Positions 9,001 through 56,569 of a stretch of 64,000 nucleotides of DNA are shown one piece after another. Each line of letters begins with the position of its first letter. Positions within the stretch are counted from its first letter, which is position 1. The notes below the pieces were generated by a model, which had not been told where the DNA came from, made no database searches, and was given only the letters and a program-made list of their open reading frames with translations. The position numbers and the translations under genes are program-made. This stretch comes from an uncultured Microthrixaceae bacterium (GTDB lineage: Bacteria; Actinomycetota; Acidimicrobiia; Acidimicrobiales; VFJN01), in assembly GCA_963727905.1 (NCBI GenBank), contig CAVSIC010000021.1, positions 34,998 through 98,997 of the forward strand. Reading direction: 5' to 3'.

Positions 9001-9494
9001 CCGACGGAAGCCGAGTCGAGGCGTTGCGCCAGGCGGCGCAGCGACTCGGCGTTGCGGGCGTGGAGGACCGGCCGCAGCACCGGCGTGAGGGCCACCCAGC
9101 CGCCCTTGGGCCGCTCGCTGAACCGGACCTCGCTGCCGGTCGCGCACGGCACCACGAGCAGCTCGACGTCCGCCCGGAACAGGCCGACGTGGACCACGAG
9201 CTCGAGGCGGTAGGGCGGGTCGGCCGCGGTGGCCTCGGTGGAGTCGTCGATCGTGGCGCCCTTCGTCGGACCGACGGAGTGGCGGAACTCGGCCCCCGGC
9301 GCCGGGAACGCCGAGTCGACCCCCCGGATGCGCTGGGCGCCGACAAGCCAGTCCGGGTACGTGGCGGGGTCCGCGATCACCGCCCACACGTCCTCCGGGG
9401 AGACCGACACCTCGACGCGGGCTTCGACGGGCGACAGGAGGCCGGGCACGCCCTGCACCTGCCCGCTGCCCGCGTGGGCCAGACGGGGTTTCAC
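8997..9494 (-). CDS. SRPBCC-family protein (polyketide cyclase/dehydrase-like)
   Basis: 165 aa. 'VEVSVSPEDVWAVIADPATYPDWL' is a typical SRPBCC N-terminal strand-helix. Its stop shares the CTAG tetranucleotide with the convergent GNAT stop. Confidence 0.7.
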   Translation of the reverse strand: MKPRLAHAGSGQVQGVPGLLSPVEARVEVSVSPEDVWAVIADPATYPDWLVGAQRIRGVDSAFPAPGAEFRHSVGPTKGATIDDSTEATAADPPYRLELVVHVGLFRADVELLVVPCATGSEVRFSERPKGGWVALTPVLRPVLHARNAESLRRLAQRLDSASVG

Positions 9495-9496
9495 GC

Positions 9497-9533
9497 GGGC
9501 GGGCCCGCCGAGCGTCTTCCGACGGGCCCGCCC
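9497..9533 (-). terminator. GC-rich hairpin between the hemerythrin and SRPBCC genes (11-bp stem, 15-nt loop, no U-tract)
   Basis: GGGCGGGCCCG (9497-9507) pairs perfectly with CGGGCCCGCCC (9523-9533). It lies 13 nt downstream of the hemerythrin stop on the minus strand. Confidence 0.4.
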
Positions 9534-9545
9534 ACGCGGCCTGAG

Positions 9546-10109
9546 CTACTGGGCCATCGCCTCCGACAGCGCCTCGGCCAGCTCTTCCTTCTTCATGTCC
9601 GACGCGCCGTCGATGCCGGCGTTCTCGGCCTCGGCGACGAGCTCCTCCTTGGACGAAGCCTTGGCGAGGGCCTCGGCCGGCATCGGCATGCCGAGGGCGA
9701 GCCGCTTGGCCATGAACGGCGTGGCCATGTCGGCCAGCACCGTCTCGCCATCCGAGCGGAGCTTCGGGAAGACGTCGTTCTCCTCCTCGTCGACGTGGTG
9801 CGTGATGCCGGCGATGAGCGCGTCGAGCGCGGCACCGAACCCGGGTTCGTCGGGGGCCAGCGACTGCACGTCCTTGAGGGCCTTCTTGGCGAGCTCGTGC
9901 TCGGTCTCGCCCTCCTGCACGGGCTCCTCGCCGGTGACGGGCTTCATCTTCGGGTACACGACCTCCTCCTCGAGCGCCATGTGCGCCAGGAGGTTGGTGG
10001 TCAGCTCCTCGATGAGAGGCGTGCGGGCGGCGCCCTCGGCCTTCTCGATCTTGTCGAAGAGCTCCTCCACCGTGCGGTGGTCGGCTTCCAGGATCCGGGT
10101 CACGTCCAT
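9546..10109 (-). CDS. Hemerythrin HHE cation-binding domain protein with a C-terminal Rho_N/SAP-like helix-extended-helix tail
   Basis: 187 aa. 'ILEADHRTVEELF', 'HMALEEEVVYP' and 'HHVDEEENDVFP' are hemerythrin His/Glu ligand motifs. The tail 'SKEELVAEAENAGIDGASDMKKEELAEAL' resembles the Rho N-terminal motif. Confidence 0.85.
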   Translation of the reverse strand: MDVTRILEADHRTVEELFDKIEKAEGAARTPLIEELTTNLLAHMALEEEVVYPKMKPVTGEEPVQEGETEHELAKKALKDVQSLAPDEPGFGAALDALIAGITHHVDEEENDVFPKLRSDGETVLADMATPFMAKRLALGMPMPAEALAKASSKEELVAEAENAGIDGASDMKKEELAEALSEAMAQ

Positions 10110-16159: not shown

Positions 16160-18316
16160 ATGTCGATCGCCATCACCGAAGACCATCTGGCCCTGGCCGA
16201 GACGGCCGCCGACTTCCTCCAGAAGCGGGACGCCCGGGGGGTGGCCCGCTCGATGCTCGAGGCTCCCATCGAGGAGCTCCCCGACTTCTGGAAGGCCCTC
16301 GTCGACCTCGGCTGGCTCGGCCTCCACATCCCGGAGGACCTCGGTGGCTCGGGCTACGGGCTCGAGGAGCTCGTGGTCGTGGTCGAGCAGCTCGGCCGCC
16401 AGATCACGCCCGGCCCGTTCGTCCCCACCGTGATCGCCAGCGCCCTGCTGGTCGCCGCGGGCGACGACGCCACCAAGAGCAAGCTCCTCCCCGGCCTGGC
16501 CGACGGCTCCGTCGCCGGCGCCGTGGCCCTCGCGGGCAACGTCACCGTCGAGGGCGGCAAGGCCTCCGGCGATGCCGGCAACGTGCTCGGCGGCGGCCTG
16601 GCCCAGGTCCTCCTCGTGGCCTCGGGCGACGACGTCGCCGTGGTGGAGGTGGGCGACGGCGTCACCGTCACCGTGCCCGCCAACCTCGACCCCAGCCGCC
16701 GCACCGCCAAGGTCACGCTCGACGGCGCCGCCGCCACCGTGCTCGAGGGCGCCCGCCGCACCCTCACCGACCTGGCCCGCGTGATCCTCGCCGCCGAGGC
16801 CGTCGGCGTCGCCGGCGAGGCGGCCGAGATGGGCGCCGCCTACGCGCGGGAGCGCCTGCAGTTCGGTCGCGTGATCGGCACCTACCAGGCCGTGAAGCAC
16901 CACTGCGCCAACATGGTCGTGGCCACCGAGATGGCCACCAGCGCCGTGTGGGACGCCGCTCGCGCCACCTCCACCGGCGGCGACCAGCTCAGCTATGCCG
17001 CGGCCGTGGCCGCCACGCTCGCGGCGCCGGCCGCCGACAAGTGCGCCAACCTCAACACCCAGGTCCACGGCGGCATCGCCATCACCTGGGAGCACGACGC
17101 CCACCTGTACATGCGCCGGGCCACGACCCTCCTCGGGTACCTGGCCGCCGACGAGGCCGCCGCGGACCTGACCGACCTCGTGCGCAGCGGCGTGGAGCGC
17201 GAGAAGGCCATCGAGCTGCCGCCGGAGGCCGAGGCCATCCGCACCGAGGTCCGGGCCTTCGTCGAGAGCATCAAGGGACTGTCGTCCGACGACCAACGCA
17301 CCAAGCTCATCGAGACCGGCTACCTCATGCCGAACTGGCCCAAGCCGTACGGCCGGGCCGCCGGCGCGGTGGAGCAGCTCGTCATCGAGCAGGAGTTCAA
17401 GGCCGGCGGGATCAAGAAGCCGCAGTACGGCATCACCGCGTGGAACATCCTCACGATCATCCAGTACGGCAACCAGGACCAGCTCGACCGCTGGGTGAAG
17501 CCGGCGCTGGACCAGGAGGTCATCTGGTGCCAGCTCTTCAGCGAGCCCGACGCCGGGTCTGACGCGGCCGGCATCAAGACCAAGGCCACCCGGGTGGACG
17601 GCGGCTGGCTGGTCAACGGCCAGAAGGTCTGGACCTCCGGCGCCCACTACAGCGGCATGGGCTTCGCCACCGTGCGCACCAACCCGGACGTCCCGAAGCA
17701 CGACGGCATCACGATGATGGCGATCGACATGCACGGCACCGGCGTCGAGGTGCGGCCGCTGAAGATGACCACCGGGAACTCGGAGTTCAACGAGGTCTTC
17801 TTCAACGACGTGTTCGTTCCGGACGACGACGTCGTCGGCCCCGTGGACGGCGGCTGGACCGTCGCCCGCGCCACGCTCGGCAACGAGAGCGTGAGCATCG
17901 GCGGCGGCGGTGGCGGCGGCTTCGCGATGCCGCCCCAGGCCCTCCTGTCGCAGTTCGACGCCCACCCGGAGCGCCTCTACGGCGGCGCCGCCCGCATCGG
18001 CCGCTACATCGCCGAGAACCAGGCCATCACGCTGCTCAACCTGCGTTCGGCCAACCGGGCGGTCGCCGGCGGCGGCCCCGGCCCCGAGGGCGCCATGACC
18101 AAGCTCATCCTCTCGGAGATCGGCCACGAGTCGGCGGCCATCCTCACCGAGGTCATCGGTCCAGAGTCCGCCTTCATGGAGGGCGACGGGATGATGAGCA
18201 ACATGATGGTGCTCATGCACCGCGGCCTCTCGATCGCCGGCGGCACCAGCGAGATCAAGCGGAACCAGATCGGCGAGCGCCTCGCCGGCCTGCCCCGCGA
18301 CCCGCTCATCAAGTAG
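16160..18316 (+). CDS. Fused double acyl-CoA dehydrogenase (two ACAD units in one 718-aa chain)
   Basis: Start ATG 16160 inside track ORF 15968..18316. The first half ends with 'YARERLQFGRVIGTYQAVKHHCANM...QVHGGIAITWEHDAHLYMRRA'. The second half has 'CQLFSEPDAGSDAAGIKTKATRVDGGWLVNGQKVWTSGA' and 'IAGGTSEIKRNQIGERLAGLP'. Confidence 0.85.
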   Translation: MSIAITEDHLALAETAADFLQKRDARGVARSMLEAPIEELPDFWKALVDLGWLGLHIPEDLGGSGYGLEELVVVVEQLGRQITPGPFVPTVIASALLVAAGDDATKSKLLPGLADGSVAGAVALAGNVTVEGGKASGDAGNVLGGGLAQVLLVASGDDVAVVEVGDGVTVTVPANLDPSRRTAKVTLDGAAATVLEGARRTLTDLARVILAAEAVGVAGEAAEMGAAYARERLQFGRVIGTYQAVKHHCANMVVATEMATSAVWDAARATSTGGDQLSYAAAVAATLAAPAADKCANLNTQVHGGIAITWEHDAHLYMRRATTLLGYLAADEAAADLTDLVRSGVEREKAIELPPEAEAIRTEVRAFVESIKGLSSDDQRTKLIETGYLMPNWPKPYGRAAGAVEQLVIEQEFKAGGIKKPQYGITAWNILTIIQYGNQDQLDRWVKPALDQEVIWCQLFSEPDAGSDAAGIKTKATRVDGGWLVNGQKVWTSGAHYSGMGFATVRTNPDVPKHDGITMMAIDMHGTGVEVRPLKMTTGNSEFNEVFFNDVFVPDDDVVGPVDGGWTVARATLGNESVSIGGGGGGGFAMPPQALLSQFDAHPERLYGGAARIGRYIAENQAITLLNLRSANRAVAGGGPGPEGAMTKLILSEIGHESAAILTEVIGPESAFMEGDGMMSNMMVLMHRGLSIAGGTSEIKRNQIGERLAGLPRDPLIK

Positions 18317-18322
18317 CGGCGA

Positions 18323-19762
18323 TCAGCCCAGCGACACCCGGAGCGACGGGGCGGTCCCGCGCGGCCCCGCCGGGGGCAAGGGCGCGCGCGTGCGGTTCCG
18401 GGTCAGGGTCAGGCGGTCGATCACGGCCCCGGTAGGGGTGACCGCTCGCAGACGCAGCTCGGTCGTGCCGTCGGGACCCGGCGGGATCACGTCGATCGCG
18501 AGCACGGAGCTGACGGGGTTCGCCACCGCGGACCAGGTCGTCAGCTCCGGGACCTTGAGGCCGATGCCGCCCTGGGTGACGTAGGAGACCCCGGGAAGGA
18601 AGGTCGGGTACGCAGCCTGCCCGCCCCCGCCGGCGGTGATGTAGGTGGTGCCGCGGGCGCTCGACCACGAACCGCCGTTGGCGACCTCGCGCACGACCTC
18701 GCCGCCGCGCATCGGGTGGGCCCGCTCGTAGCAGTGGTTGTGGCCGTTGACGACGAGGTCGACCTGGTGCTCGTCGAACAGCGCGCCCCACGCATCGCGC
18801 ACGCCGCCGTCGGAGCCGTGGACGGCGTTCGAGCAGTAGGCGCAGTGGTGGAAGCCCGCCACGATCCAGTCGATCGTCGGATCCGTCCGCAGCGCAGCGA
18901 GCGTGCGGCCGAGCCACGCCGTCTGCGCGCCACCGGTCCAGCCGCGGTTGCGGGCGATCTCGGAGGAGACGTCGTTGGCGTCGAGGTTCACGAACGCGAC
19001 GTTGCCGTGGCGCGCCGTCCACGCGGTGGGCACGCCCTTCGGGCCGTTGCCGGGCAGCGGCACGCGGGCGAGGTACCCGTCGTAGCCGAGCTCGCCCTGG
19101 CCGTCCTCCATCTCGTGGTTGCCGACGCCGGCCAGCCACGGCGTGGCGGCGCCGCCCGCTCCGGAGACGAGGCCGAGCCACCGGTCCCACACCGCGTGGT
19201 CGACGGTGGGTGGGATCAGCTCAGGCAGGTTGGGCGTGAGGCCGCCGGTCTTCGACGCGTACGAGAGGTCACCCACGACGAACACCACGTCGGGAGCGAT
19301 GCGCCGGATGCTGGCGTCCACCGCGGCGGCCTCGGCGCCGTCGCCCTGGTCACCGAACGCGACGAACGTGAACGGCACCGCCGCCGTCGGCGCCGTGGTC
19401 GCCGTGCCGGAGACGGCGCCACCGGTGTGCGACAGGCGGTACGAGTGCACGGTCGCGGAATCGAGGCCGTCGACCAGCACGTGGTGGTAGCGGACGCTGC
19501 TCCCGACCACCGCCCGCGTCTCGACCGGCACGACCCGGCCGAGGCTGCCATCGAGACCGACCTCGGCCCGCAGGTCGCGCACGGGACCGGGCGTCGACCA
19601 GGCCAGGCGAAGGGACCGGGCCGCATCGGGCCCGTAGCCCACTCGCGGCGCGACCGGCGGCGCGGCCCACGCCCCCGGGGTGCGGAGCAGGAGCAGGCCG
19701 GCGGTGGCCGCCGAGCCCGCGAGGAAGTGGCGGCGGGTGAGGCGGACGGACACCGCCGGCAC
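18323..19762 (-). CDS. Tat-secreted metallophosphoesterase (purple-acid-phosphatase-like)
   Basis: 479 aa. Twin-arginine signal 'LTRRHFLAGSAATAGLLLL...AWA'. Metallophosphoesterase motifs 'FGDQG', 'GDLSY', 'GNHE', 'VAGFHH' and 'GHNHCYER'. Confidence 0.85.
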   Translation of the reverse strand: MPAVSVRLTRRHFLAGSAATAGLLLLRTPGAWAAPPVAPRVGYGPDAARSLRLAWSTPGPVRDLRAEVGLDGSLGRVVPVETRAVVGSSVRYHHVLVDGLDSATVHSYRLSHTGGAVSGTATTAPTAAVPFTFVAFGDQGDGAEAAAVDASIRRIAPDVVFVVGDLSYASKTGGLTPNLPELIPPTVDHAVWDRWLGLVSGAGGAATPWLAGVGNHEMEDGQGELGYDGYLARVPLPGNGPKGVPTAWTARHGNVAFVNLDANDVSSEIARNRGWTGGAQTAWLGRTLAALRTDPTIDWIVAGFHHCAYCSNAVHGSDGGVRDAWGALFDEHQVDLVVNGHNHCYERAHPMRGGEVVREVANGGSWSSARGTTYITAGGGGQAAYPTFLPGVSYVTQGGIGLKVPELTTWSAVANPVSSVLAIDVIPPGPDGTTELRLRAVTPTGAVIDRLTLTRNRTRAPLPPAGPRGTAPSLRVSLG

Positions 19763-19977
19763 GGTAGCGGGAGGGAGCCGTCCGGATCAGGCCAGCCGGC
19801 GGTCGATCTCGGCACCCGGCGGCGCCGCGGCCGCGGCGATGCCCTCGCCGTCCTCGCCATCCGGCCGTGACGCCGGGCACAACCGATGAACGGACGTGCC
19901 AGCCGTCGTCAGAAGGGGAACACTTGGGGGGAACCCACGGTTGACGCCGGGTGACGAAATCGGGTGGGGGTGAGCGC

Positions 19978-22083
19978 ATGACCGAACCACGGACGGAGGG
20001 AGAGCCCTCTGCCGTCGGGCCCCGGCGCACGTCCGACGACATCGCCCCGCTCGTCGACCTCCGGGACCCCGCCGCCGTCGATCCGGCCGCCACCGGGGCC
20101 AAGGCCGCTGCGCTGGCCCGAGCGGCCGCCGCGGGGCTCCCCACCCTCCCCGGGCTGGTGCTCACCACGGCATTCACCGACGACGTCGACGCGGGGGCGC
20201 AGGTGGCCGGCCACCCTGCGCTGCGCGACCTGCCCCGCGCCCTCGTCACCGGAAGCGACCAGCGGCTCATCGTCCGCAGCTCGTCCACGGCCGAGGACGG
20301 CGAGCACACCTCGCAGGCCGGTCAGTTCGCCTCCGTCGCCCCTGTCGATGGCCCCGACGAGCTCGCCATGGCGGTGCAGGTCGTCCTCGACTCGCGACGT
20401 GCCCCCGGCGCGCCGGCCGACGCGGCCATGGCCGTGCTCGTGCAGCCGTACCTCGACGTGGTCGTCGGTGGCGTGATGTTCGGCGTCGACCCCGTGAGCG
20501 GGCGCCGCGACCGCCGGGTGGTGTCCGCCGTCCGCGACTCCGTGGAGGGGCTGGTCAGCGGCACCGTGGCCGGCTCGAGGTACGTGGTGGACCCGGCGGG
20601 CGGCGTCGTCGAGCGCGACCGCGGCGACGGCCCCGCGCTGAGCCGGCGTTCGCTGCGGCGGCTGGTGCGACTTGCCGATCGAGCGGCTGCGCTCTTCGGC
20701 GGTCCGCAGGACATCGAGTGGGCCATCGACCGCCATCGTCGGCTCTGGCTGCTGCAGAGCCGGCCGGTCACCACCGAGGTGCGCGGGGTCCCGATCGGTC
20801 CCGTCTACGGGCCCGGCCCCGTGGCCGAGACGTTCCCGGAGCCGCTCACCGAGCTCGAGCACGACCTCTGGGTGCCGCCCCTGCGCGACGCCGTCCGCCA
20901 CGCGGTCGTCCTCGCGGGGGCGGCGTCGCACCGCGAGATCGCGGCCAGCGGCGTGGTGGTGCAGGTCGAGGGACACGTCGCCATCGACCTCCACCTCGCC
21001 GGTCAGCAGGAGCGGCACCGCGGGATCGCCCACCACGTGGACCCGCGCCCCGCACTGCACCGGCTCCGGGGCACGTGGCGCGTCGGGCGCCTCCGCGCCG
21101 CGCTCCCGAGCCTGGCCGAGCACCTCCTGTCCCGCACCGACGCCGACCTTCGGCGGGTGCCCGAGCTCGGCGACCTCTCCGCCCGGCAGCTCGTCGCCCT
21201 CCTGCACCGTGCCCGCGACGTGCTGCGCGCCCTGCACGCCCACGAGGTGCTGATGGGCCTCCTGACCGACGCCGGCAGCACCCTCACGGGCGCGTCCGTG
21301 GCGCTGCGCGTCCTGGGCAACGCGCGGGAGGAGGGGCTCACCGACGCCGAGATCGTGGAGCGCTACCCGGTCGTGCTCGCCGTCACCGCGCCGCGGGTCG
21401 GCCCGCGGCCCGACCTCGCCCCGGGCCTCGAGACCGGCCTCCTCGGCGACGGTCCCGCCGGCGATCCGCACGAGAACGAGGCGGGCGTGCTGCGGGAGGC
21501 GCTGCGGCTCCGCGTCCGCTGGGTCCAGGAGCTCGGAGGCCGGGCCGCCTGGGAGCTCGGTCAGCGGCTCCACGCAGAGGGCCTCCTCACCGACCCCGAG
21601 CGGGTCCGCCACCTGCACCTCGAGGACCTCGATGCCGTGGCCACCCATCGGGGCGAGCTGGTGCCGGCCCTCCTCACCACCCACGAGGACCACCCGGGTC
21701 CGGCGCTGCCCGCCCGGTTCCGCATCTCCGACACGGGGCGGCCCATCCGGGTGCGCGAGGGCGAGGCCGGCGGCGGCACCGGCGCCGGAGGCGGCGTGGG
21801 CCGCGGGGTCGTCACCCACGACGCGGCCGATCCGCCGGAGGGGTCCGTCCTCGTCACCACCACCCTCACCCCCGGGCTCGGCCCGCTCCTCTCACGGCTC
21901 GAGGGCATCGTCGCCGAGACCGGCTCCGTGCTGTCGCACCTCGCGATCCTCGCCCGGGAGGCCGGCGTCGCCACCGTGGTCGGGTACCCCGCCGCCACCG
22001 AGGAGCTCGCCGAGGGCTCCGTCGTGGTGGTCGACGGCCACACCGGGAACGTCACGATCGAGTCCACGGAGGCCCGGTCGTGA
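19978..22083 (+). CDS. PEP/pyruvate-binding (PPDK_N ATP-grasp) plus C-terminal phosphohistidine swivel-domain enzyme; rifampicin-phosphotransferase-like architecture
   Basis: N-terminal half: 'RSSSTAEDGEHTSQAGQFASV', 'AVLVQPYLDVVVGGVMFGVDPVSG', 'DIEWAIDRHRRLWLLQSRPVTT'. C-terminus: 'LVTTTLTPGLGPLLSRLEGIVAETGSVLSHLAILAREAGVATVVG' (mobile His domain). The start is ATG 19978 or the track start 19951. Confidence 0.8.
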   Translation: MTEPRTEGEPSAVGPRRTSDDIAPLVDLRDPAAVDPAATGAKAAALARAAAAGLPTLPGLVLTTAFTDDVDAGAQVAGHPALRDLPRALVTGSDQRLIVRSSSTAEDGEHTSQAGQFASVAPVDGPDELAMAVQVVLDSRRAPGAPADAAMAVLVQPYLDVVVGGVMFGVDPVSGRRDRRVVSAVRDSVEGLVSGTVAGSRYVVDPAGGVVERDRGDGPALSRRSLRRLVRLADRAAALFGGPQDIEWAIDRHRRLWLLQSRPVTTEVRGVPIGPVYGPGPVAETFPEPLTELEHDLWVPPLRDAVRHAVVLAGAASHREIAASGVVVQVEGHVAIDLHLAGQQERHRGIAHHVDPRPALHRLRGTWRVGRLRAALPSLAEHLLSRTDADLRRVPELGDLSARQLVALLHRARDVLRALHAHEVLMGLLTDAGSTLTGASVALRVLGNAREEGLTDAEIVERYPVVLAVTAPRVGPRPDLAPGLETGLLGDGPAGDPHENEAGVLREALRLRVRWVQELGGRAAWELGQRLHAEGLLTDPERVRHLHLEDLDAVATHRGELVPALLTTHEDHPGPALPARFRISDTGRPIRVREGEAGGGTGAGGGVGRGVVTHDAADPPEGSVLVTTTLTPGLGPLLSRLEGIVAETGSVLSHLAILAREAGVATVVGYPAATEELAEGSVVVVDGHTGNVTIESTEARS

Positions 22084-22607
22084 AGCTCGTCGCCTGGCTC
22101 GCGGGCCTCGCCTCCGCCGTCACCGCCGGGGGCTACATGGTCGTGTCGCTCAACCGGTGGGAGTGGGACCGGGCCCTCTTCTTCGGCCTCATCCTGCTGA
22201 TGGCCGAGGTCGGGCTGGCCACGGGCCTCGTGCTCCGCAAGCTCGATCGCATCTCCGCGCAGGTCGAGCGCGCCGGTCCCGTCGATCCCGCCGTCACCGG
22301 CATCGTGCAGCACACCCGCCCGGCGGCCCCCGACCGGTTCGCGTGGCTCCGGGAGACCACCCAGCGCACCAACGTCTTCATCACCTTCCTCGTCGGCGGC
22401 GGCGTGCTCCTGTCGGGCATGGCGTGGCTCGTCGACCGCGTCGCCTCCCGCACCTCCACCCCCCAGCGCGAGGAGCGCCTCGTTCGCCTCCTCGCCCCGA
22501 TCAGCTACCCCGCCGCGGGCCTCCTGGTCGACGACGCCACGGCCCTGACGCAGGACGTCCCGGGCGACGACGACGGCCAGCTGCGCCGCCTGCTGCGCGG
22601 GACCTGA
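22080..22607 (+). CDS. Hypothetical membrane protein (175 aa), translationally coupled to the PEP-utilising enzyme
   Basis: GTG 22080 overlaps the upstream TGA (GTGA). Hydrophobic helices: VAWLAGLASAVTAGGYMVV, LFFGLILLMAEVGLATGLVL, VFITFLVGGGVLLSGMAWLV. No recognisable domain. Confidence 0.55.
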   Translation: MKLVAWLAGLASAVTAGGYMVVSLNRWEWDRALFFGLILLMAEVGLATGLVLRKLDRISAQVERAGPVDPAVTGIVQHTRPAAPDRFAWLRETTQRTNVFITFLVGGGVLLSGMAWLVDRVASRTSTPQREERLVRLLAPISYPAAGLLVDDATALTQDVPGDDDGQLRRLLRGT

Positions 22608-22612
22608 ACGCC

Positions 22613-23008
22613 GTGCCGGATCAGCGTCGCCTCGTCGCCCGGTTGCTGCTGGCCGGCGTCGGGCTGGCGCTCGGGATCGGGGGCGTGCTGGCGCTGCGGG
22701 AGGCGACCCTCTCCACGCACCAGCACGTGAGCCGCAATACGGAGGCTGTGCTGCTGCTCGACGCGGAGATCAAGGGCGGCGAGCCGGGGCAGACGCGCGA
22801 CGAGGCCGTGGAGGCGATGGTGTGGACCTGCCGCCTCGAGGTGGGGCGCTCGGACCCTCACCGCATCGACGACCTCGGTGACGGTCGCTACCGGGTGGTG
22901 CTGCGGCCGGGCATGGACCAGACCAACCAGCGCCAGCTACGTGGCTGCCTCGAGGACTGGCACATCGACCACGTCCGCATCGACGTGGTCAGCCTCGAGG
23001 TGCGCTGA
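22613..23008 (+). CDS. Hypothetical protein (131 aa) with an N-terminal TM anchor
   Basis: GTG 22613 lies 5 nt after the previous stop. 'LVARLLLAGVGLALGIGGVLAL' is followed by a soluble domain (...VWTCRLEVGRSDPHRIDDLGDGRYRVVLRPGMDQTNQRQLRGCLEDW...). Its 3' end overlaps the convergent PAP2 gene by 72 nt. Confidence 0.45.
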   Translation: MPDQRRLVARLLLAGVGLALGIGGVLALREATLSTHQHVSRNTEAVLLLDAEIKGGEPGQTRDEAVEAMVWTCRLEVGRSDPHRIDDLGDGRYRVVLRPGMDQTNQRQLRGCLEDWHIDHVRIDVVSLEVR

Positions 23009-23701
23009 CGGGTCGGGGGCGACCGTCCGTCCGCCGTGCAGGCGGAGGAGGAGCCACTCGGCGGCCGCGACACCGAGGATGGTGAGCGCCAGGGCGGCCA
23101 CCACGTCGGAGGCCCAGTGCACGCCGAGCCACACCCGGCTGAAGGCCACCGCCACGGCGAGGATCCACACCGAGATGGCCGAGAGCCACCACAGGAACCG
23201 GCGCCGCGTGTAGAGCGCGATCACGGGCGGGAGCAGCCCCCAGCTGGCGGCGATGGCCAGCGGGTGCCCGCTCGGGAACGAGTAGCCGGCGCCGTTGACC
23301 ATCCGGTTGCCATCGGGCCGGGGCCGCGAGATGAGCTCCTTGAGGGTGAACTCCGCCAGCGGGCGGGCGACGGCGATGATCACGATCGCGAGGGCCAGGC
23401 GCGGGCAGCGGCGGGCGGCGAGCAGCGCGGCGACGCCGGCGACCGGGAAGACCACCTTGGTGGAGCCCAGGAACGACACGCGGCGGACCACGGCGTTGAG
23501 CTCCGGCGTGCGGAGGGAGACCAGCCAGCGGGTGATGACCTCGTCCCACGGCAGGGTGTTGAAGATCGCCCCTGCGGCGAGCGCCACGAAGAGGAGGATG
23601 GCGGCCGGGACGAGCCAGCGGAACCGGGCCGACACCTGTCCGAGGGTCATGGGCGGATGGGCGTGCAGGTCCACGAGGGCCAAGGGTAAGGGTTCGGGCA
23701 C
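22937..23701 (-). CDS. PAP2-family lipid phosphatase
   Basis: The three PAP2 motifs are present: 'KELISRPRP', 'PSGH' and 'SRVWLGVHWASD'. Several TM helices. The start could instead be the internal ATG at 23650. Confidence 0.8.
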   Translation of the reverse strand: MPEPLPLALVDLHAHPPMTLGQVSARFRWLVPAAILLFVALAAGAIFNTLPWDEVITRWLVSLRTPELNAVVRRVSFLGSTKVVFPVAGVAALLAARRCPRLALAIVIIAVARPLAEFTLKELISRPRPDGNRMVNGAGYSFPSGHPLAIAASWGLLPPVIALYTRRRFLWWLSAISVWILAVAVAFSRVWLGVHWASDVVAALALTILGVAAAEWLLLRLHGGRTVAPDPSAHLEADHVDADVVDVPVLEAAT

Positions 23702-23741
23702 CCCCGTTGGAAGTCGCGCGACCCGAAATGAGCCGAACGAC

Positions 23742-24680
23742 CTAGCGGGGACCCGCGATCCCCGCGTGCTCGAGGAGGAGCGAGCGGAACTCCGCCTCGG
23801 TGGCGTGCGCCGGCTCCGTCGCGGCCACGAACGCCTCGAACGCCTCGATGAAGTCGGGCGCGGCGTCGGTCGGCAGGAAGTGGCCGATGCCCGGGAGCAC
23901 CACGAGGGTGCTGCCCGGGATGAGCGCGTGGGCGGCGTGGGCGTGGGCCACCGGGATGATCTGGTCGCGCTCGCCCCACAGGATCAGGGTGGGCACCTCG
24001 CTCGCCAGGTAGAGGCGATCGCGGGCGCTCACGCGCTGCCCCATCGGGTCGATCACCGACCGGACGGTGTGGATGAACGCCATCCGGCCGCCGATCTCCG
24101 ACAGACCGGTGTAGCTGCGCCACACCTCGCGGCCCGTGGCGCCCATGCGCAGGCCCCGCCGGCCGAACCACCGGTTGATGGCGTCGAGCACGCTGTGCAT
24201 CTGGCCGCTGAGCAGCACCGGCATCACGAGCTCGCTGCCGGGGAGGCTGACCGCTCGCAGCAGCGAGTTGACCTCCTTGCCCAGACCGCCGCTGGCCACG
24301 AGCACCAGGCGCTCGCACCGCTCGGGGAACTGGTAGGCCAGCTGCAGCGCGACGCCGCCGCCGAGCGAGTGGCCCACGAACGTGGCCCGCTCGATGCCGA
24401 GCGCCACCATCAGGTCGCGCAGGCCGCTGGCGTAGGCGCCGAGGGAGTAGTCGCCCCGGGGCTTGGCGGAGTCGCCGTGGCCCAGCAGGTCGGGCGCCAG
24501 CACGGTGAAGTGGTCGGCCAGGGACGGCATCACCTCGTGCCAGGTGGTGGAGCTGCCGGCCAGGCCGTGGACCAGGACCACGGCGGGACCGGAGCCGGCC
24601 ATGCGGTAGCCGACGTCGTGGCCGTGGATCGTGATGTGGCGAAGGCTCAGGTCGTGGGGGTGGTCGGGCACGGCGTCCAC
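23742..24680 (-). CDS. Alpha/beta-fold hydrolase
   Basis: 'VVLVHGLAGSS', the nucleophile elbow 'GHSLGG' and the C-terminal 'GHF' His motif are present. Start set at GTG 24680 (or 24671), overlapping the upstream gene's stop at 24647. The track start 24848 lies inside that upstream gene. Confidence 0.85.
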   Translation of the reverse strand: MDAVPDHPHDLSLRHITIHGHDVGYRMAGSGPAVVLVHGLAGSSTTWHEVMPSLADHFTVLAPDLLGHGDSAKPRGDYSLGAYASGLRDLMVALGIERATFVGHSLGGGVALQLAYQFPERCERLVLVASGGLGKEVNSLLRAVSLPGSELVMPVLLSGQMHSVLDAINRWFGRRGLRMGATGREVWRSYTGLSEIGGRMAFIHTVRSVIDPMGQRVSARDRLYLASEVPTLILWGERDQIIPVAHAHAAHALIPGSTLVVLPGIGHFLPTDAAPDFIEAFEAFVAATEPAHATEAEFRSLLLEHAGIAGPR

Positions 24681-25414
24681 TGTGGCAGGGCCCGGCGGCG
24701 GTCCAGGAATCGGACCGCGGCCACCACCATCACGAGGACCACGAGCCCGTCGAGCCAGTAGTGGTTGGCGGTGACGACGACCGCGAACGACGTGACCACG
24801 GCATGGACGACCCCGATCCAGCGCCAGCGGGCGCGGGTCATCTGCCACATGCCGTACGCCACGATCAGCGCCCAGCCCACGTGCAGCGAGGGCATGGCGG
24901 CGTACTGGTTGGCCACGCTGGCCACGCCGGGCCGGGAGTAGATGGCCGGGCCGTAGCGGGCGATGGTGTCCACGAAGCCGGCCATCATCCGCGGCGGGGC
25001 CAGCGGGTAGAGGATCTGGGTCGCGAGGGCCACCCCCGTGACGGAGACGAACACGAACCGGATCCGGCGGTACAGGTCGGGGCTCTTCACGTACACGAGC
25101 GCGATGAACGCGACCGTGGCCGGGAAGTGGACCATCGCGTAGTACCGGTTCAGGAGCTTGATCACCGGCAGGTGGTCGAGCAGGACGTCCTGGAGCCGCT
25201 CCTCGTTGGCGAGGCCGACGTCGCGCTCCCAGCGCAGCACGTCACGGGCGTGGTCGAACGCCTCGTCGATGTTGTTCCGCCCGAGGTAGCGGCCGAGCCG
25301 GTACAGGGTGAGCAACGAGAACAGGAGCGCGATCTCGAGGAGCAGCCGACGGCCGAACCGCCCGCGCCACCAGACGCCGACGTGCGACCCCATCTGGACG
25401 CGCCCCGCAGACAC
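24647..25414 (-). CDS. PAP2_3-type membrane protein (inositol-phosphorylceramide-synthase/PAP2-like superfamily)
   Basis: 255 aa, polytopic. 'YAAMPSLHVGWALIV ... VVTANHYWLDGL' matches the PSLH ... H.x.D motif of the PAP2_3 family as I recall it. Confidence 0.65.
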   Translation of the reverse strand: MSAGRVQMGSHVGVWWRGRFGRRLLLEIALLFSLLTLYRLGRYLGRNNIDEAFDHARDVLRWERDVGLANEERLQDVLLDHLPVIKLLNRYYAMVHFPATVAFIALVYVKSPDLYRRIRFVFVSVTGVALATQILYPLAPPRMMAGFVDTIARYGPAIYSRPGVASVANQYAAMPSLHVGWALIVAYGMWQMTRARWRWIGVVHAVVTSFAVVVTANHYWLDGLVVLVMVVAAVRFLDRRRALPQWTPCPTTPTT

Positions 25415-25453
25415 GCTCGGGACCGTACCCCTCTTGCCGTGCTCGAAGCTCCC

Positions 25454-27763
25454 TCAGGCGTCCTGCGGGACCTTCTCCTCCAGCTCGTCGTCGAGGGGGG
25501 CGGCCACGCTGGTGCCCTCCACCGCGACGTGCGGGATCAGCCGGTCGAGCCACCGCGGCAGCCACCAGTTCCGGTCGCCCAGGAGCTCCATGGTGGCCGG
25601 CACCAGGAGCATGCGGACGATGGTGGCGTCGAGGAAGATCGCCGACGCGAGGCCGGTGCCCATCAGCTTGAACGTGCGGTCGTTCTCGAGGATGAAGCTC
25701 CCGAACACCACGACCATGATCGCGGCAGCTGCCGTGATCACCTTCGCCGTGGCGGCGAGCCCGTCGGCCACGGAGGTCCGGCTGTCGCCCGTGCGGTGCC
25801 ACTCCTCCCGCACCCGCGAGAGCAGGAAGACCTCGTAGTCCATCGACAGGCCGAACACGATGGCGAACAGCATCATCGGCATCCAGGGCTCGACCGGGCC
25901 GGGCTGCACGCCGGTGATGTCGCTCAGCCACCCCCACTGGAAGAGGGCGACCATGATCCCGTAGGCGGCACCGATCGACAGCAGGTTCATCACCACCGCC
26001 TTCAGCGGGACCAGCAGCGACCGGAACACCACCATCAGCAGCAGGAACGACAGGATCAGCACGGCCCCGAAGAAGATCGGGATGCGCTCGCGCATCAGGC
26101 TGGAGGCGTCGACGTTGGCGGCGACGATGCCCGTGACCTTGATGTCGGTGCCGGTGGCCTGCTCGACGCCCGGGAGGACGTCGTCACGGAGGCGGTCGAC
26201 GAGCGCGTCGGTGGCCTCGTCCTGCGGTCCGGAGGTGGGGGCGACGAACCACCGCACCGCGGTGCCGGCCTCGTTCGGCTGCGGACCGAGCACGGCCGCC
26301 ACGGACGGATCCGCGCCGACCGCCGTGTTGACCGCCGCGAGCGCCTGCAGGTCGGCCCCCGGCTGGACCTCGGTCACGAGGTACAGCGGGCCGTTGAAGC
26401 CCTTGCCGAAGCCCTCGACCAGGAGGTCGTAGGCCTGCTTCGTGGTGGTGTCGTCCGCGAAGTTGCTCTCGTCGGAGAAGGCCAGGCGCAGCCCGAGCAC
26501 CGGGATCGTGAGCACGAGGAGCACCACAGCCCCGCCGAGCGTCGCCCGCCACGGCCGGTGCTGGATCACGCGGCTCCACCGGTAGGCGACGGTCTCGCGG
26601 CGCGGCTTCGGCGGTCGGTGGGTGATCTCGGTCTTGAGGGCCGGGACGAACGTCCCGACGATCAGGACCAGGATCGCGAGTGGGAACGCGCCCATGAGCG
26701 GGGGGACGTCGAGGCCGAACCCGACGAGGCCGACGGCGACGAGGGTGGCGGCGAGCAGCCCGCGGCGCTTGGTCCGCTCGATGTTCTCGCCGGCGAAGCC
26801 GAGGAACGCCGGGAGCAGCGTCACCGAGGCCAGGACCGTGAGCAGGACGGTGAAGGCGGCCGTGACGGCGAGGCCCTGCACGAACCCGATGCCCATGAGC
26901 AGCATGCCGAGGACCGAGACCACGACCGTGGCGCCCGCGAACAGCACGGAGCGGCCGGCGGTGTCCATCGCGATGCCGACCGACTCCCGCACGTCGTGTC
27001 CGGCATGGAGCTGCTCGCGGTGTCTCGTGATGATCAGCAGCGCGTAGTCGATGCCGACGCCGAGCCCGATCATGATCCCGATGAACGGGGCGAACTCCGG
27101 GACGTCGATGAGGTTGCTGAACAGGATGACGCCCGCCCCACCGATGCCGATCCCCACGAGCGCGACCGCGACGGGCAGGCCCATGGCCAGCACCGAGCCG
27201 AACGCGACGATGAGGATGATCACGGCGAAGGCGAGGCCGAGGGCCTCGGAGCTGGGCTCCTCGAACTCGGCGAAGAGGTAGCCACCGAGCTCCACCCGCA
27301 GGCCGTCGATCTCCGGGAAGTTGTCCTCGATGGCGTCGCGGTCGTCGCCGACCTTCGCGAAGTCGACGTCCTCGGGATACTCGACGTTGGCGTACGCGAT
27401 GGTGCCGTCCTCGGAGATGAGCTCCTCGCCGCCCGGGCCGTACGGGCTCTGCACCGCGACGACCTCGGGGTACGTGGCGACCTCGTCGATGAGCGCGGAC
27501 ATGGCGGCCTGCACCGCGGGGTCGTCCACGCCCTGGTCGGCCTGGAACACGATCGTGCCGACCTGGCCGGCGCCCTGTCCCTCGAACTCCGCGGTGAGGA
27601 TGTCGAAGCCCTCGGACGATTCGGCCCCGGGGAGGCTGAAGTCCTGTCGGTAGTCCTCGCCGATGCTGCTGGCGATGCCGTTGCTCAGGACGAGGATGAG
27701 GACCCACGCGGCGACCACCCAGCGGCGGCGGTCGTGGCACCAGGGACCGAGTCGGGCGAACAT
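25454..27763 (-). CDS. MMPL-family (RND superfamily) lipid transporter
   Basis: 769 aa from ATG 27763. Two six-TM bundles each follow a large periplasmic domain. 'GLGVGIDYALLIITRHRE' and 'GLSMDYEVFLLSRVREEW' are the duplicated MMPL signatures. The track ORF extension to 29329 is antisense to the WS/DGAT gene. Confidence 0.92.
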   Translation of the reverse strand: MFARLGPWCHDRRRWVVAAWVLILVLSNGIASSIGEDYRQDFSLPGAESSEGFDILTAEFEGQGAGQVGTIVFQADQGVDDPAVQAAMSALIDEVATYPEVVAVQSPYGPGGEELISEDGTIAYANVEYPEDVDFAKVGDDRDAIEDNFPEIDGLRVELGGYLFAEFEEPSSEALGLAFAVIILIVAFGSVLAMGLPVAVALVGIGIGGAGVILFSNLIDVPEFAPFIGIMIGLGVGIDYALLIITRHREQLHAGHDVRESVGIAMDTAGRSVLFAGATVVVSVLGMLLMGIGFVQGLAVTAAFTVLLTVLASVTLLPAFLGFAGENIERTKRRGLLAATLVAVGLVGFGLDVPPLMGAFPLAILVLIVGTFVPALKTEITHRPPKPRRETVAYRWSRVIQHRPWRATLGGAVVLLVLTIPVLGLRLAFSDESNFADDTTTKQAYDLLVEGFGKGFNGPLYLVTEVQPGADLQALAAVNTAVGADPSVAAVLGPQPNEAGTAVRWFVAPTSGPQDEATDALVDRLRDDVLPGVEQATGTDIKVTGIVAANVDASSLMRERIPIFFGAVLILSFLLLMVVFRSLLVPLKAVVMNLLSIGAAYGIMVALFQWGWLSDITGVQPGPVEPWMPMMLFAIVFGLSMDYEVFLLSRVREEWHRTGDSRTSVADGLAATAKVITAAAAIMVVVFGSFILENDRTFKLMGTGLASAIFLDATIVRMLLVPATMELLGDRNWWLPRWLDRLIPHVAVEGTSVAAPLDDELEEKVPQDA

Positions 27764-27904
27764 GGCAGCTCCTGCAGGCGTGGGATGGATGTCCGGCAGA
27801 CGCAGCATGGCCTCCCGAGTCATCGGACAAAGGGATCTTTCCTGCACCATCGCGCAGAATCCCTGACATCCCGTGTCCGGTGACAACCGACCAAATACGC
27901 CCAG

Positions 27905-29317
27905 ATGGTCAAGTTCGATAGCGTCGGTCGGATGCCCACTGCGAAGCGCTTGAACGAGGCCGATGCCAACTTCGTGGTGGTGGGGGCCGCGAGCGGCACC
28001 CCGTTCGTGCCCGTCGCGGTCACGGTCTACGAGCACCCGCACCCCGATCCGGCCACCACCGAGCACCTCATCGAGGTGATGTCCCGGCTGCTCCCGTCGA
28101 TGCACCAGCGCATCGTGCGCGATCGGCTGAGCCCCGCGCTCCCCCGCTGGGAGGACGTCCCCGGGTTCGATCCCGCCGACCACACGGTGGTGCTGCCCGC
28201 CCCGGGCGACGGCACCCTGCGGGCCGTCCTCGACTGGGCCCAGGAGTGGGGACGGCTGCCGCTCCCCCTCGACCGTCCGCAGTGGCGGTCCGTGAGCTTC
28301 GAGGACGTCACCGTCGACGGCGTCCCCGGCCGACTCGTGATGGTGGCGCAGTTCCACCACGCGGTGATCGACGGGATGGGCGCGATGCGTCTGGCCGAGC
28401 ACTTCTACCAGTGGGGTCCCGACGGCGAGCTGCCGGCGATGCCCGACCCCGTCGAGGCCGACACCTCCACCCCGTTGGAGGCGTGGAAGGCCGGGTGGGC
28501 ATCCGAGGCCGGCAAGGCCAAGGCGCTGCTCCGCAACACGGGGCGCCGCCTGCGGTGGGCCGCGTCGAACCCGAAGGCCGGCGTCGCCCGCGCCAAGGAG
28601 CTCGGCGCCGCGCTGCAGCGCATGCAGGCCGAGCAGGGCACCGAGCCGCTCAGCCCCCTGCTCCGCCGCACGTCCGACCGCAACCGCTTCGACCACCTTC
28701 GCGTCGACCTCGACGCCCTGCGGGCCGGCGCCCGCTCCCTGGGCGGCAGCGCCAACGACGGCCTGCTGGCGGCGGTGAGCCTCGGCCTGCACCGGTACCA
28801 CCTCGACCACGGCCTGCGCGTCCCCGCGGTGCGCACGGCGATGGCGATCAGCACCCGCACCGAGGCCGACGGCCACGCCGGCAACGAGCTGATCGCCGCG
28901 ATCATGGGGCTGCCGCTCATCGGTGACGCGGAGACCGCGGTGAAGGAGTGCCAGGCCGTCAGCCGCGCCCAGCGGGACGACCGCGACGTGATGTGGCTGA
29001 TGGACCGCTCGCGGGCGGCGATCAACCGCTTCCCGAAGCCCCTGATCGCCCGCACGATCGTGAAGGGCAGCAAGGCCCTCGACATGACGATCTCCAACGT
29101 CAAGGGCATGCCCCTGCGCAGCTGGGTGGGCGGCGTCGAGTCCCTGGAGACCGTGCCCTTCGTCATCGGCGGCCCGGCCCTCTCCGTCACCCTCATCAGC
29201 GGCCCGTCGTTCGCCTCCCTCGGCGTGGTCACCTGCCCCGAGGCCATCACCGACCCCGAGGTCCTGGTGCAGCACTTCGAGAAGGCCTTCGAAGAGGTCA
29301 GCGCCCTCGCCGGTTGA
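27905..29317 (+). CDS. WS/DGAT-family O-acyltransferase (wax ester synthase / diacylglycerol acyltransferase-like)
   Basis: 470 aa. The catalytic 'HHAVIDGMG' (HHxxxDG) motif is present, and the C-terminal half is typical of WS/DGAT. ATG 27932 is an alternative start. Confidence 0.85.
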   Translation: MVKFDSVGRMPTAKRLNEADANFVVVGAASGTPFVPVAVTVYEHPHPDPATTEHLIEVMSRLLPSMHQRIVRDRLSPALPRWEDVPGFDPADHTVVLPAPGDGTLRAVLDWAQEWGRLPLPLDRPQWRSVSFEDVTVDGVPGRLVMVAQFHHAVIDGMGAMRLAEHFYQWGPDGELPAMPDPVEADTSTPLEAWKAGWASEAGKAKALLRNTGRRLRWAASNPKAGVARAKELGAALQRMQAEQGTEPLSPLLRRTSDRNRFDHLRVDLDALRAGARSLGGSANDGLLAAVSLGLHRYHLDHGLRVPAVRTAMAISTRTEADGHAGNELIAAIMGLPLIGDAETAVKECQAVSRAQRDDRDVMWLMDRSRAAINRFPKPLIARTIVKGSKALDMTISNVKGMPLRSWVGGVESLETVPFVIGGPALSVTLISGPSFASLGVVTCPEAITDPEVLVQHFEKAFEEVSALAG

Positions 29318-55736: not shown

Positions 55737-55768
55737 TCCACCCCCTCCCGCTGAGCAAGGATCCCCGC

Positions 55769-56566: not shown

Positions 56567-56569
56567 CCC

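Follow-up and report, generated by a model that had tools for sequence, protein, structure and literature searches.

Within the 64,000-nt stretch of DNA analyzed here (the window), which belongs to an Acidimicrobiia genome, the gene for a putative phosphohistidine-dependent dikinase and the two small membrane-protein genes that follow it, termed g2 and g3, form a conserved actinobacterial gene module, and a phosphatase gene is a recurrent partner of this module. We tentatively propose, at somewhat less than even confidence, that the trio encodes a membrane-docked dikinase complex that would supply the cytoplasmic part of a cycle in which a membrane-embedded or translocated substrate is phosphorylated and dephosphorylated. 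The features of the locus are collected in Table 1.

Table 1. Coordinates of the enzyme-g2-g3 module and of the neighboring phosphatase gene in the window.
Feature	Position	Strand	Remarks
Shine-Dalgarno-like GGGTGGGGGTGA	19962..19973	+	read from sequence; 5 nt upstream of enzyme ATG 19978
Enzyme gene	19978..22083	+	ATG 19978, TGA 22081-22083; 701 aa; dikinase-type, RPH-like domain order
ATP-grasp (PPDK_N) nucleotide-binding domain	20050..20775	+	residues ~25-266; Pfam PF01326
Middle, presumed substrate-binding domain	20776..21774	+	residues ~267-599; mostly helical (AF2)
Phosphohistidine swivel domain	21775..22068	+	residues ~600-697; Pfam PF00391
g2	22080..22607	+	GTG 22080-22082 overlaps enzyme stop by 4 nt (GTGA); 175 aa
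g3	22613..23008	+	GTG 22613, 5 nt past g2 stop; 131 aa
PAP2 lipid-phosphate phosphatase	22937..23701	-	254 aa; convergent with g3, 72-nt overlap; Pfam PF01569

The colinear order enzyme-g2-g3 was found in 74–76 of 84 related loci (tblastn, Acidimicrobiia set), which, together with the 4-nt overlaps between enzyme and g2 (49 of 60 called pairs) and between g2 and g3 (28 of 63 pairs), argues for an adjacency beyond chance. Between genomes with ~62% identical enzymes, g2 is ~64% and g3 44–54% identical, and enzyme genes lacking g2/g3 occur solely as second copies, in MAGs with a full trio elsewhere. Another actinobacterial clade, to which Streptomyces parvulus belongs, encodes g2 and g3 as a single fusion protein of ~300 aa, and a g2 profile search retrieved many such fusions of ~290–310 aa, indicating that g2 and g3 function as one unit; in this fused clade, the enzyme gene immediately precedes the fusion gene in the same orientation at all 59 of the 59 loci having upstream sequence. 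The preliminary description had treated the three genes as a module, an idea that would fail if the downstream ORFs did not stay with the enzyme in other genomes; the gene-neighborhood comparison it had proposed, when carried out, gave the opposite outcome, the two ORFs being strictly linked to the enzyme and elsewhere fused to each other. An apparent enzyme-g2 fusion in locus L078 was not relied on as proof of docking, as it stems from reading through in frame in a MAG built from nanopore data; reading it in frame would require the opposite membrane orientation. Three other long proteins (P0406, P0366, and P0372) have frameshift-like junctions and were not used as fusion evidence either.

For the enzyme, the three-part layout read earlier from the sequence, consisting of a PPDK_N-type ATP-grasp part, an unassigned middle, and a C-terminal His domain in a chain of about 700 aa, was reproduced by Pfam, with matches to PPDK_N at residues ~93–266 (E 5e-25) and to PEP-utilizers at residues 620–690 of 701 (E 1e-18), and with no domain upon searching residues 267–600. 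Family-wide invariants of the ATP-grasp domain include RSS (100–102), ED (106–107), AG.F, VLVQ, GPQD.E, and Q.RP.T, with R100, S101, S102, E106, D107, Q244, D245, E247, Q260, R262, and P263 invariant across clades. The swivel motif TGSVLSHLAILAREAG corresponds to residues 648–663; of its T-G-S-x-x-S-H signature, T648, G649, S650, and H654 show no variation across clades, and in alignments to PEP synthase and rifampicin phosphotransferase (RPH), His654 (codon at nt 21937–21939) falls on their phospho-His. Judged by its ATP-grasp motifs and catalytic His, the enzyme is a member of the general phospho-His swivel dikinase superfamily. The middle domain has invariants of its own, namely GPGPVAET.P..L..LE.(D/E)LWV.P (278–301), W367/G370-R371-L372, H420/E423, and RE.LR.R.R...E (506–518). 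In the AF2 model, the ATP-grasp domain (pLDDT 80–92) and the swivel domain are usable, and the middle domain is predicted to be helical at low confidence (pLDDT 25–77), which precludes pocket analysis and any statement about a lipid-binding site. Homologues of the enzyme numbered 2555, the best 120 of these 2555 being 59–66% identical and ~695 aa long.

The membrane proteins likewise agree with their initial reading, according to which g2 is polytopic with a start overlapping the enzyme stop and g3 is a TM-anchored protein encoded immediately behind it. Three hydrophobic segments (~3–24, 32–53, and 98–119) are present in g2, with an RWEW motif that is invariant in the TM1–TM2 linker, Glu43 within TM2, and a conserved C-terminal tail of ~55 aa; g3 combines a single hydrophobic segment, the N-terminal TM helix of residues 4–33, with a predicted beta-alpha-beta-beta-alpha-beta ferredoxin-like domain (residues 45–130; AF2, pLDDT 92), in which Cys73 and Cys112 are invariant in the alignments. 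Charge counting gave a clear topology signal at the g3 helix only and left g2 ambiguous. Among 1169 g2 homologues (468 clusters at 50% identity), none has a Pfam domain, and the precomputed Pfam fields were blank for all g2 and g3 homologues listed. Searches of g2 and g3 against Pfam, NCBIfam, and PADLOC profiles gave zero matches, and a fold search with g3 returned generic ferredoxin-like matches only, none at E <= 0.001. The two proteins match no described family, in line with the earlier impression that the trio lies outside described systems, and the module was not described in any paper found in our literature searches. An anti-phage defense role was dropped, as a PADLOC search had no matches.

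A conserved fourth gene of the module is the PAP2 gene, whose convergent overlap with g3 was confirmed from the coordinates. Its product scores 44.5 bits against PF01569 (cutoff 27.2), has B. subtilis PgpB/YodM (5jki, E 4.5e-18) as its closest solved relative, and carries in translation KELISRPRP, PSGH, and SRVWLGVHWASD, corresponding to all three motifs KX6RP, PSGH, and SRX5HX3D; the next-best named NCBIfam matches are undecaprenyl-diphosphatases. A PAP2 homologue adjoins the trio in 29 of 84 loci and does so in four arrangements (on the same strand after g3, convergent, divergent upstream, or upstream together with a PTP), and the PAP2-bearing loci are scattered over deep branches of the enzyme tree. 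In the fused clade, a gene for a DSP-PTP bearing a CX5R motif immediately follows in 22 of 47 loci, usually in convergent orientation. An N-terminal hydrophobic segment is present in 28 of 30 DSP-PTP copies, with an Arg/Lys-rich N-flank (K+R count of 4.3 before and 1.4 after the segment), for which reason the catalytic domain is predicted to be extracytoplasmic. PAP2 active sites, such as those of PgpB and BcrC, face the outer leaflet, as seen in solved PgpB structures. Both phosphatases occur together in six loci, and about half of the loci are without a phosphatase partner. The preliminary description had invoked nearby lipid-phosphate enzymes more broadly; of these, the PAP2 gene stood up as a conserved partner, but the PAP2_3, alpha/beta hydrolase, MMPL, WS/DGAT, and Metallophos genes did not and were rejected as members together with the acyl-CoA dehydrogenase gene, each being present in 0–2 of 84 loci.

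Several other neighbors were considered. Genes for a REC-thioredoxin-reductase response regulator and a cNMP-binding histidine kinase precede the module in 34 of 84 loci; since these loci form one monophyletic subclade, they represent one evolutionary event, and the pair, which is absent from the window, was rejected as a core partner. An adenylate cyclase gene is inserted between g2 and g3 in one locus (L001), and SpoIIE/PP2C, STAS, or GAF-ANTAR genes were seen near some module loci. In Streptomyces parvulus, a DedA-family gene stops 2 nt before the enzyme gene; DedA was discarded as a general partner, as this linkage is confined to one closely related Streptomyces group and absent from Embleya. 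An upstream regulatory RNA or promoter was also discarded: there was no Rfam family across the whole window and no sigma-70-like promoter or intrinsic terminator within 19500–24000, the sequence upstream of the enzyme gene featuring GC-rich imperfect inverted repeats only.

If the trio indeed is a membrane-docked dikinase, the soluble enzyme would bind ATP through its ATP-grasp domain, the beta-phosphate would pass to His654 of the swivel domain with release of AMP and Pi, and the phosphate would then be handed from His654 to a substrate in the helical middle domain. The g2 and g3 proteins may combine into a membrane unit of four helices, with conserved elements on either side of the membrane. 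This unit would physically tether the enzyme to the inner face and would also handle the substrate by presenting, flipping, or translocating it. As g2/g3 would both dock the enzyme and handle the substrate, the latter might be a membrane lipid, an amphiphilic alcohol, or a membrane-crossing molecule. An outer-face phosphatase, in our locus the PAP2 protein and elsewhere the N-terminally anchored DSP-type enzyme, would strip the phosphate, so that, with the domains facing as we infer, the cycle would run as phosphorylation inside and dephosphorylation outside. The idea of a membrane-associated or exported substrate, put forward initially on the basis of the gene neighborhood, is strengthened by these phosphatase partners. 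Points that speak against the docked-dikinase cycle are the ambiguous topology of g2/g3, the lack of a phosphatase partner at about half of the loci, the restriction of the DedA link to a single Streptomyces lineage, that four TM helices are few for a transporter, and that the gene content would also fit g2/g3 as a sensor. It seems unlikely that the trio is a lipid-carrier or group-translocation machine of a new kind, in which the PAP2 or anchored DSP-phosphatase would first dephosphorylate outside, g2/g3 would move the resulting alcohol (either a carrier lipid of the polyprenol type or a phenolic lipid, e.g., a quinol) across, and the dikinase sitting on g2 and g3 would re-phosphorylate it at the inner face. 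DSP-PTPs have no known action on polyprenyl phosphates.

The gene content can alternatively be explained by a sensor-coupled regulatory kinase, where g2-g3 acts as a transmembrane sensor, with the ferredoxin-like domain and its Cys pair outside and the conserved tail inside, that switches a cytoplasmic dikinase whose target is a soluble metabolite or protein. This is conceivable, yet we consider it rather improbable. VadK of M. tuberculosis provides a parallel, as this PPDK-like protein without a PEP/pyruvate domain can serve as an autophosphorylating regulator (PMC13400623); the small, well-folded g3 domain with its two invariant Cys residues is a possible redox or ligand sensor, and signaling genes recur nearby, including the two-component pair in 34 of 84 loci, the adenylate cyclase gene of L001, and SpoIIE/PP2C, STAS, and GAF-ANTAR genes. 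The two-component link, however, is limited to the single subclade mentioned above, the middle domain is conserved as strongly as a catalytic substrate site, and regulation would leave the recurrent phosphatases predicted outside the membrane unexplained.

The same phosphatases bear on the proposal of a membrane-anchored detoxifying kinase that, in the manner of RPH, inactivates a lipophilic antibiotic or xenobiotic crossing the membrane, with g2/g3 as a mere anchor, or that traps a membrane-permeant phenolic through phosphorylation, as proposed by the authors of the HpeHI study: a phosphatase outside would reverse the inactivating phosphorylation. Among solved structures, RPH comes closest, with an identical domain order, and the hydroxyl compounds phosphorylated by all characterized relatives (RPH, PigC/HapC, HpeHI, PpsAB, and CreHI) are small and often hydrophobic (PMC4844700, PMC12167813). 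Nonetheless, we judge detoxification to be quite unlikely, given a score of 98 bits versus an RPH cutoff of 999, a middle domain shorter by ~100 aa, the lack of conserved catabolic or resistance genes around the module, and strict conservation over hundreds of Acidimicrobiia species, which suggests a housekeeping substrate. The probability is minimal for an ordinary PEP synthase or pyruvate phosphate dikinase of central metabolism with unrelated neighbors. Source annotations of the enzyme homologues read ‘pyruvate, water dikinase’, and the enzyme has its ATP-grasp and swivel domains in common with PpsA, with 8a8e as the best PDB sequence match. Such an identity was refuted by domain content: the PEP-utilizers_C TIM barrel (PF02896) is absent from the enzyme in the Pfam search, nor had it been visible in the preliminary description, and the swivel domain is C-terminal instead of central. 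PEP synthase/PPDK models gave 103–105 bits versus cutoffs of 598–740, and the near-universal linkage to g2/g3 is a further argument against a role in central metabolism.

The module genetically ties a phospho-His dikinase engine to a dedicated membrane unit without a described family, and both recur with phosphatases predicted on the opposite side of the membrane. If the proposed cycle is real, this would amount to a new membrane-associated phosphorylation system in Actinomycetota, assign a role to the orphan families g2 and g3, and correct many database entries named ‘pyruvate, water dikinase’ or ‘rifampicin phosphotransferase’; if the lipid-carrier version held, it would be a third, unrelated solution beside DgkA-type undecaprenol kinases and DedA/DUF368 translocases. 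The module is carried by many Acidimicrobiia from soil and water and also by Streptomyces, and as cultured carriers exist (Streptomyces parvulus 2297 with plasmid pSPA1, Aquihabitans daechungensis DSM 27986, and Salinilacustrithrix flava), the question is directly testable.

Among known systems, the enzyme is closest to RPH, while staying below every family cutoff (98.4 bits versus 999 for NF041857, RIF_Ptrans_rph; 61.3 bits versus 1700 for NF000283). Listeria RPH (RPH-Lm, PDB 5hv1/5fbs) likewise is a single chain of ATP-grasp, helical substrate, and C-terminal His-swivel domains, and 5hv1 ranked first among Foldseek matches spanning the whole enzyme (E 1.6e-20), in line with the initial assignment of an RPH-like order with a shorter or different middle. 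RPH, however, has 864–867 aa, and both the ATP-grasp and the middle domain of our enzyme are shorter. In the profile alignment, RPH residues 703–881 cover the swivel domain together with the end of the domain before it; of the middle domain, which is mostly without detectable sequence similarity to that of RPH and modeled by AF2 at low confidence, the last ~80 residues alone align (to RPH 703–790). Unlike RPH, which to our knowledge is not known to require membrane partners, the enzyme is encoded with g2/g3, and we know of no characterized phospho-His dikinase of its type (RPH, PigC, HpeHI, PpsA, PPDK, GWD) described as anything other than soluble. HpeHI, CreHI, and the phenylphosphate synthase PpsAB share the dikinase chemistry (ATP to AMP), the swivel His, and small hydroxyl substrates, and HpeI (9goj) matches the ATP-grasp domain of the enzyme; in these systems, though, the ATP-grasp and substrate/swivel parts are separate soluble proteins rather than one chain, whereas the extra subunits of our module are membrane proteins. 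Glucan water dikinase (GWD) provides, in reversible glucan phosphorylation, a precedent for a PPDK-type dikinase paired with DSP-family phosphatases that remove its phosphate (SEX4, LSF2, laforin). GWD has carbohydrate-binding modules and another domain order, and it shares one compartment with its phosphatases, unlike the module phosphatases predicted across the membrane from the kinase.

PigC, RedH, and HapC have the same three-domain order and are among the best NCBIfam matches of the enzyme (RedH, E 1.5e-40; PigC, E 1.8e-34), which remains below the PigC and RedH cutoffs (118.8 bits versus 1300 and 139 bits versus 1350, respectively). They are reported to activate a hydrophobic substrate by means of ATP and a phospho-His (PMC13534948). 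With ~880 aa, they are longer than the enzyme and reside in pigment biosynthetic clusters; none of the genes recurring around our module is from a pigment pathway. VadK (Rv1127c), a PPDK-derived histidine kinase that autophosphorylates and is a proposed regulator in M. tuberculosis, shares the ATP-grasp domain and swivel His and is devoid of the PEP/pyruvate barrel (PMC13400623), but is set apart from the enzyme by its description, lacking an RPH-type middle domain and membrane partners. The recycling of undecaprenyl phosphate by undecaprenol kinase DgkA, PAP2/BacA undecaprenyl-diphosphate phosphatases, and DedA/UptA proteins, the latter translocating this lipid (PMC9876793), is a further parallel: the kinase family of our enzyme is unrelated to DgkA and DedA lies beside the module in one lineage only, but the set of activities would be the same, with an inner kinase, an outer PAP2 phosphatase, and either small membrane proteins or DedA as lipid movers.

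The dikinase-type enzyme and the two small membrane proteins encoded downstream of it, g2 and g3, form a module. Rereading the sequence confirmed every coordinate and overlap of the preliminary description; the genes lie in a region of 72–77% G+C, and homologue searches found the closest relatives of all three proteins in Acidimicrobiia. A locus scan with one genome per species gave 404 loci, the best 80 of which were all from Acidimicrobiia. Among the 84 Acidimicrobiia loci related to the window, tblastn recovered enzyme, g2 and g3 in colinear order in 74–76, and elsewhere g2 and g3 are fused, so that the proposed trio, for which conservation of the two downstream ORFs was the point to be checked, holds up. 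A 4-nt overlap joins enzyme and g2 in 49 of the 60 pairs with gene calls, and g2 and g3 in 28 of 63. Searching 1.84 billion representatives with a g2 profile returned 468 clusters, many of them with members of 290–310 aa, which represent g2 joined to g3 via the g3 helix, with the RWEW motif and both cysteines kept. A dikinase gene lies directly upstream on the same strand at all fusion loci with upstream sequence (59/59), and dikinase plus g2-g3 fusion is also annotated on plasmid pSPA1 of Streptomyces parvulus and in related strains. Dikinase copies devoid of g2 and g3 were seen only as second copies in MAGs with a full trio elsewhere.

Features of the trio region and its surroundings in the window
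Feature	Position	Strand	Remarks
Enzyme	ATG 19978 to TGA 22083	+	701 aa, read from sequence
g2	GTG 22080 to 22607	+	175 aa; GTGA overlap with enzyme stop
g3	GTG 22613 to 23008	+	131 aa; 5 nt past g2 stop
PAP2 gene	22937-23701	-	convergent; 72-nt overlap with g3
Metallophos / purple-acid-phosphatase-like	18323-19762	-	479 aa; twin-arginine signal; divergent, directly upstream of enzyme
Alpha/beta hydrolase	23742-24848	-	lipid-related group 23742-29317
PAP2_3	24647-25414	-	lipid-related group 23742-29317
MMPL-type transporter	~25454-27718	-	long ORF; label from reading translation
WS/DGAT-type acyltransferase	27905-29317	+	label from reading translation

Four MAGs harbor such second dikinase copies (loci L023, L039, L040 and L046, paired with L038, L035, L009 and L004, respectively), all with the two-component system kept and g2/g3 absent; the copy at L023 is followed by genes for a 422-aa Exo_endo_phos family protein, a STAS and a PP2C-GAF protein.

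Pfam matches of the enzyme comprise PPDK_N (residues ~93–266) and the PEP-utilizers swivel domain (620–690); the residues in between have no Pfam match and a PEP/pyruvate barrel is lacking, as the preliminary description had noted. All NCBIfam models that matched did so over part of their length and scored far short of their cutoffs, the highest-ranking being the Bacillus-type ‘PEP synthase’ model (PRK06241.2-2), RedH, PigC, PpsA and rifampicin phosphotransferase (RPH). This domain content excludes a true PEP synthase or PPDK. An AF2 model built with 43 homologues as input is confident at the ATP-grasp (about 20–265) and swivel (600–697) domains, residues 267–599 being helical and poorly defined. 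The top Foldseek match in the PDB is the Listeria RPH at full length (E 1.6e-20), and a family profile aligned RPH residues 703–881 to the swivel domain and the final part of the middle domain, bearing out the RPH-like logic originally assigned to the protein. In alignments, the phospho-His of RPH and of PEP synthase corresponds to His654 in the motif TGSVLSH, a residue that is, like the ATP-grasp motifs, invariant in every clade examined; the middle domain has invariants of its own (GPGPVAET.P..L..LE.(D/E)LWV.P; W367/G370-R371-L372; H420/E423; RE.LR.R.R...E). Domains, alignments and sub-cutoff scores, taken together, thus identify the enzyme, at the level of sequence and predicted structure, as a phospho-His dikinase of RPH architecture that falls outside all named families.

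Neither g2 nor g3 matched any entry in Pfam, NCBIfam or PADLOC. The g2 protein has three hydrophobic segments, with the invariant RWEW motif between segments 1 and 2, a Glu within the second segment, and a conserved tail of ~55 aa. For g3, AF2 (pLDDT 92) predicted an initial transmembrane helix and then a domain of beta-alpha-beta-beta-alpha-beta topology, for which a fold search returned generic ferredoxin-like proteins only; two cysteines are invariant in the homologue alignment. Charge counts over 31 fusions put the g3 domain outside and the g2 tail inside, with weak signals at the remaining helices, so that the predicted topology is only partly resolved; an outside location of the g3 domain would fit a disulfide between its two invariant cysteines. 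At locus L078 (8025–10523), dikinase and g2 share one frame without a stop (832 aa, clean junction), which could reflect a genuine fusion or a misassembly of this nanopore MAG; a genuine fusion would require the g2 N-terminus to lie inside the cell.

De novo neighbour clustering and targeted tblastn revealed three kinds of recurrent partners: PAP2, a DSP-type phosphatase and a two-component pair. Among the lipid-phosphate enzymes initially noted near the trio, the PAP2 gene is recurrent (29/84 loci), while PAP2_3 is not conserved with it. PAP2 occurs in four arrangements: it may follow g3 directly on the same strand, be convergent (the case in the window), or lie upstream, either close by and divergent or ~4 kb away. 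In the enzyme tree, the loci bearing it are scattered across the deepest branches, and it also occurs in distant relatives. The window protein retains all three catalytic motifs and is closest to B. subtilis PgpB; in solved PgpB structures, the PAP2 active site faces the outer leaflet. The DSP-type phosphatase (CX5R motif) lies directly downstream, mostly convergent, at 22 of 47 loci in the second actinobacterial clade, where g2 and g3 are fused; in the Acidimicrobiia set it is present at seven loci, six of them also with PAP2. Since 28 of 30 copies carry an N-terminal hydrophobic segment, with a mean K+R count of 4.3 in the flank before it and 1.4 after it, the catalytic domain is predicted to reside outside the membrane or to be secreted.

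The third partner, a REC-thioredoxin-reductase response regulator plus a cNMP-binding histidine kinase, is encoded upstream at 34/84 loci and is absent from the window. As all 34 loci belong to one monophyletic subclade, this linkage amounts to one evolutionary event. Where genes were called, at the three loci L001–L003 (L001 2809–5927), this unusual pair lies 50–70 nt upstream of the dikinase; the regulator output is thioredoxin-reductase-like (TIGR01292, E 3e-63, below cutoff). L001, an Acidimicrobiia MAG locus on the same contig as L005, also has a class III adenylate/guanylate cyclase gene between g2 and g3 (8652–10028), called as two ORFs and probably one frameshifted gene, whose last ~24 residues repeat the g2 C-terminal tail (67% identical to window 22527–22598).

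Other lipid genes beside the window trio (alpha/beta hydrolase, PAP2_3, MMPL, WS/DGAT and the TAT-signal Metallophos gene) were not conserved with it in tblastn; Metallophos, a further secreted phosphoesterase, accompanies the module at 1/84 loci. Because the listed coordinates of the hydrolase and PAP2_3 ORFs overlap, one of the two starts is probably further downstream. On pSPA1 (L089, 4317–5764), a 249-aa protein without family match and a member of the DedA family, which has a VTT domain and weakly matches UptA, are encoded directly upstream of the dikinase, whose start is 2 nt away, with a SpoIIE phosphatase downstream; several near-identical Streptomyces strains share this arrangement, and DedA precedes the enzyme in this one group only. 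Several acyl-CoA dehydrogenase paralogues are found at window 53700–58420 and 16160–18316, tblastn with the 718-aa protein of the latter stretch giving four more matching stretches at 53.7–58.4 kb. An Rfam scan of the whole 64-kb window (1–64000) yielded no family at its gathering score.

Requiring ATP and lacking a signal sequence, the enzyme is expected to be cytoplasmic, and the four-helix membrane unit of g2 and g3, translationally coupled to it, was never found without it. The simplest reading, which we advance tentatively and rate at somewhat less than an even chance, is a cycle of inside phosphorylation and outside dephosphorylation: the dikinase would dock on g2/g3 and phosphorylate, via His654, a membrane-embedded or translocated substrate at the inner face, and PAP2 or the anchored DSP-type phosphatase would take the phosphate off at the outer face. 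Such a cycle could serve export of the phosphorylated species, or outside dephosphorylation could be followed by uptake and trapping inside. By association only, a carrier lipid (polyprenol) as substrate fits PAP2 and DedA.

A sensor-coupled regulatory kinase, with VadK as precedent (PMC13400623), would account for the signalling genes near the module, but leaves the outside phosphatases unexplained. The same phosphatase partnership, along with a housekeeping-like distribution, is at odds with a membrane-anchored detoxifying or trapping kinase comparable to RPH (PMC4844700) or HpeHI (PMC12167813), although this alternative fits the chemistry of the enzyme's family. Our literature searches found no description of an obligate g2/g3 membrane unit or of a pairing with outside phosphatases. 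Relative to known systems, the class of the enzyme is familiar, and the apparently new elements are its obligate membrane unit, made up of two orphan families that are often fused, and the pairing with an outside phosphatase.
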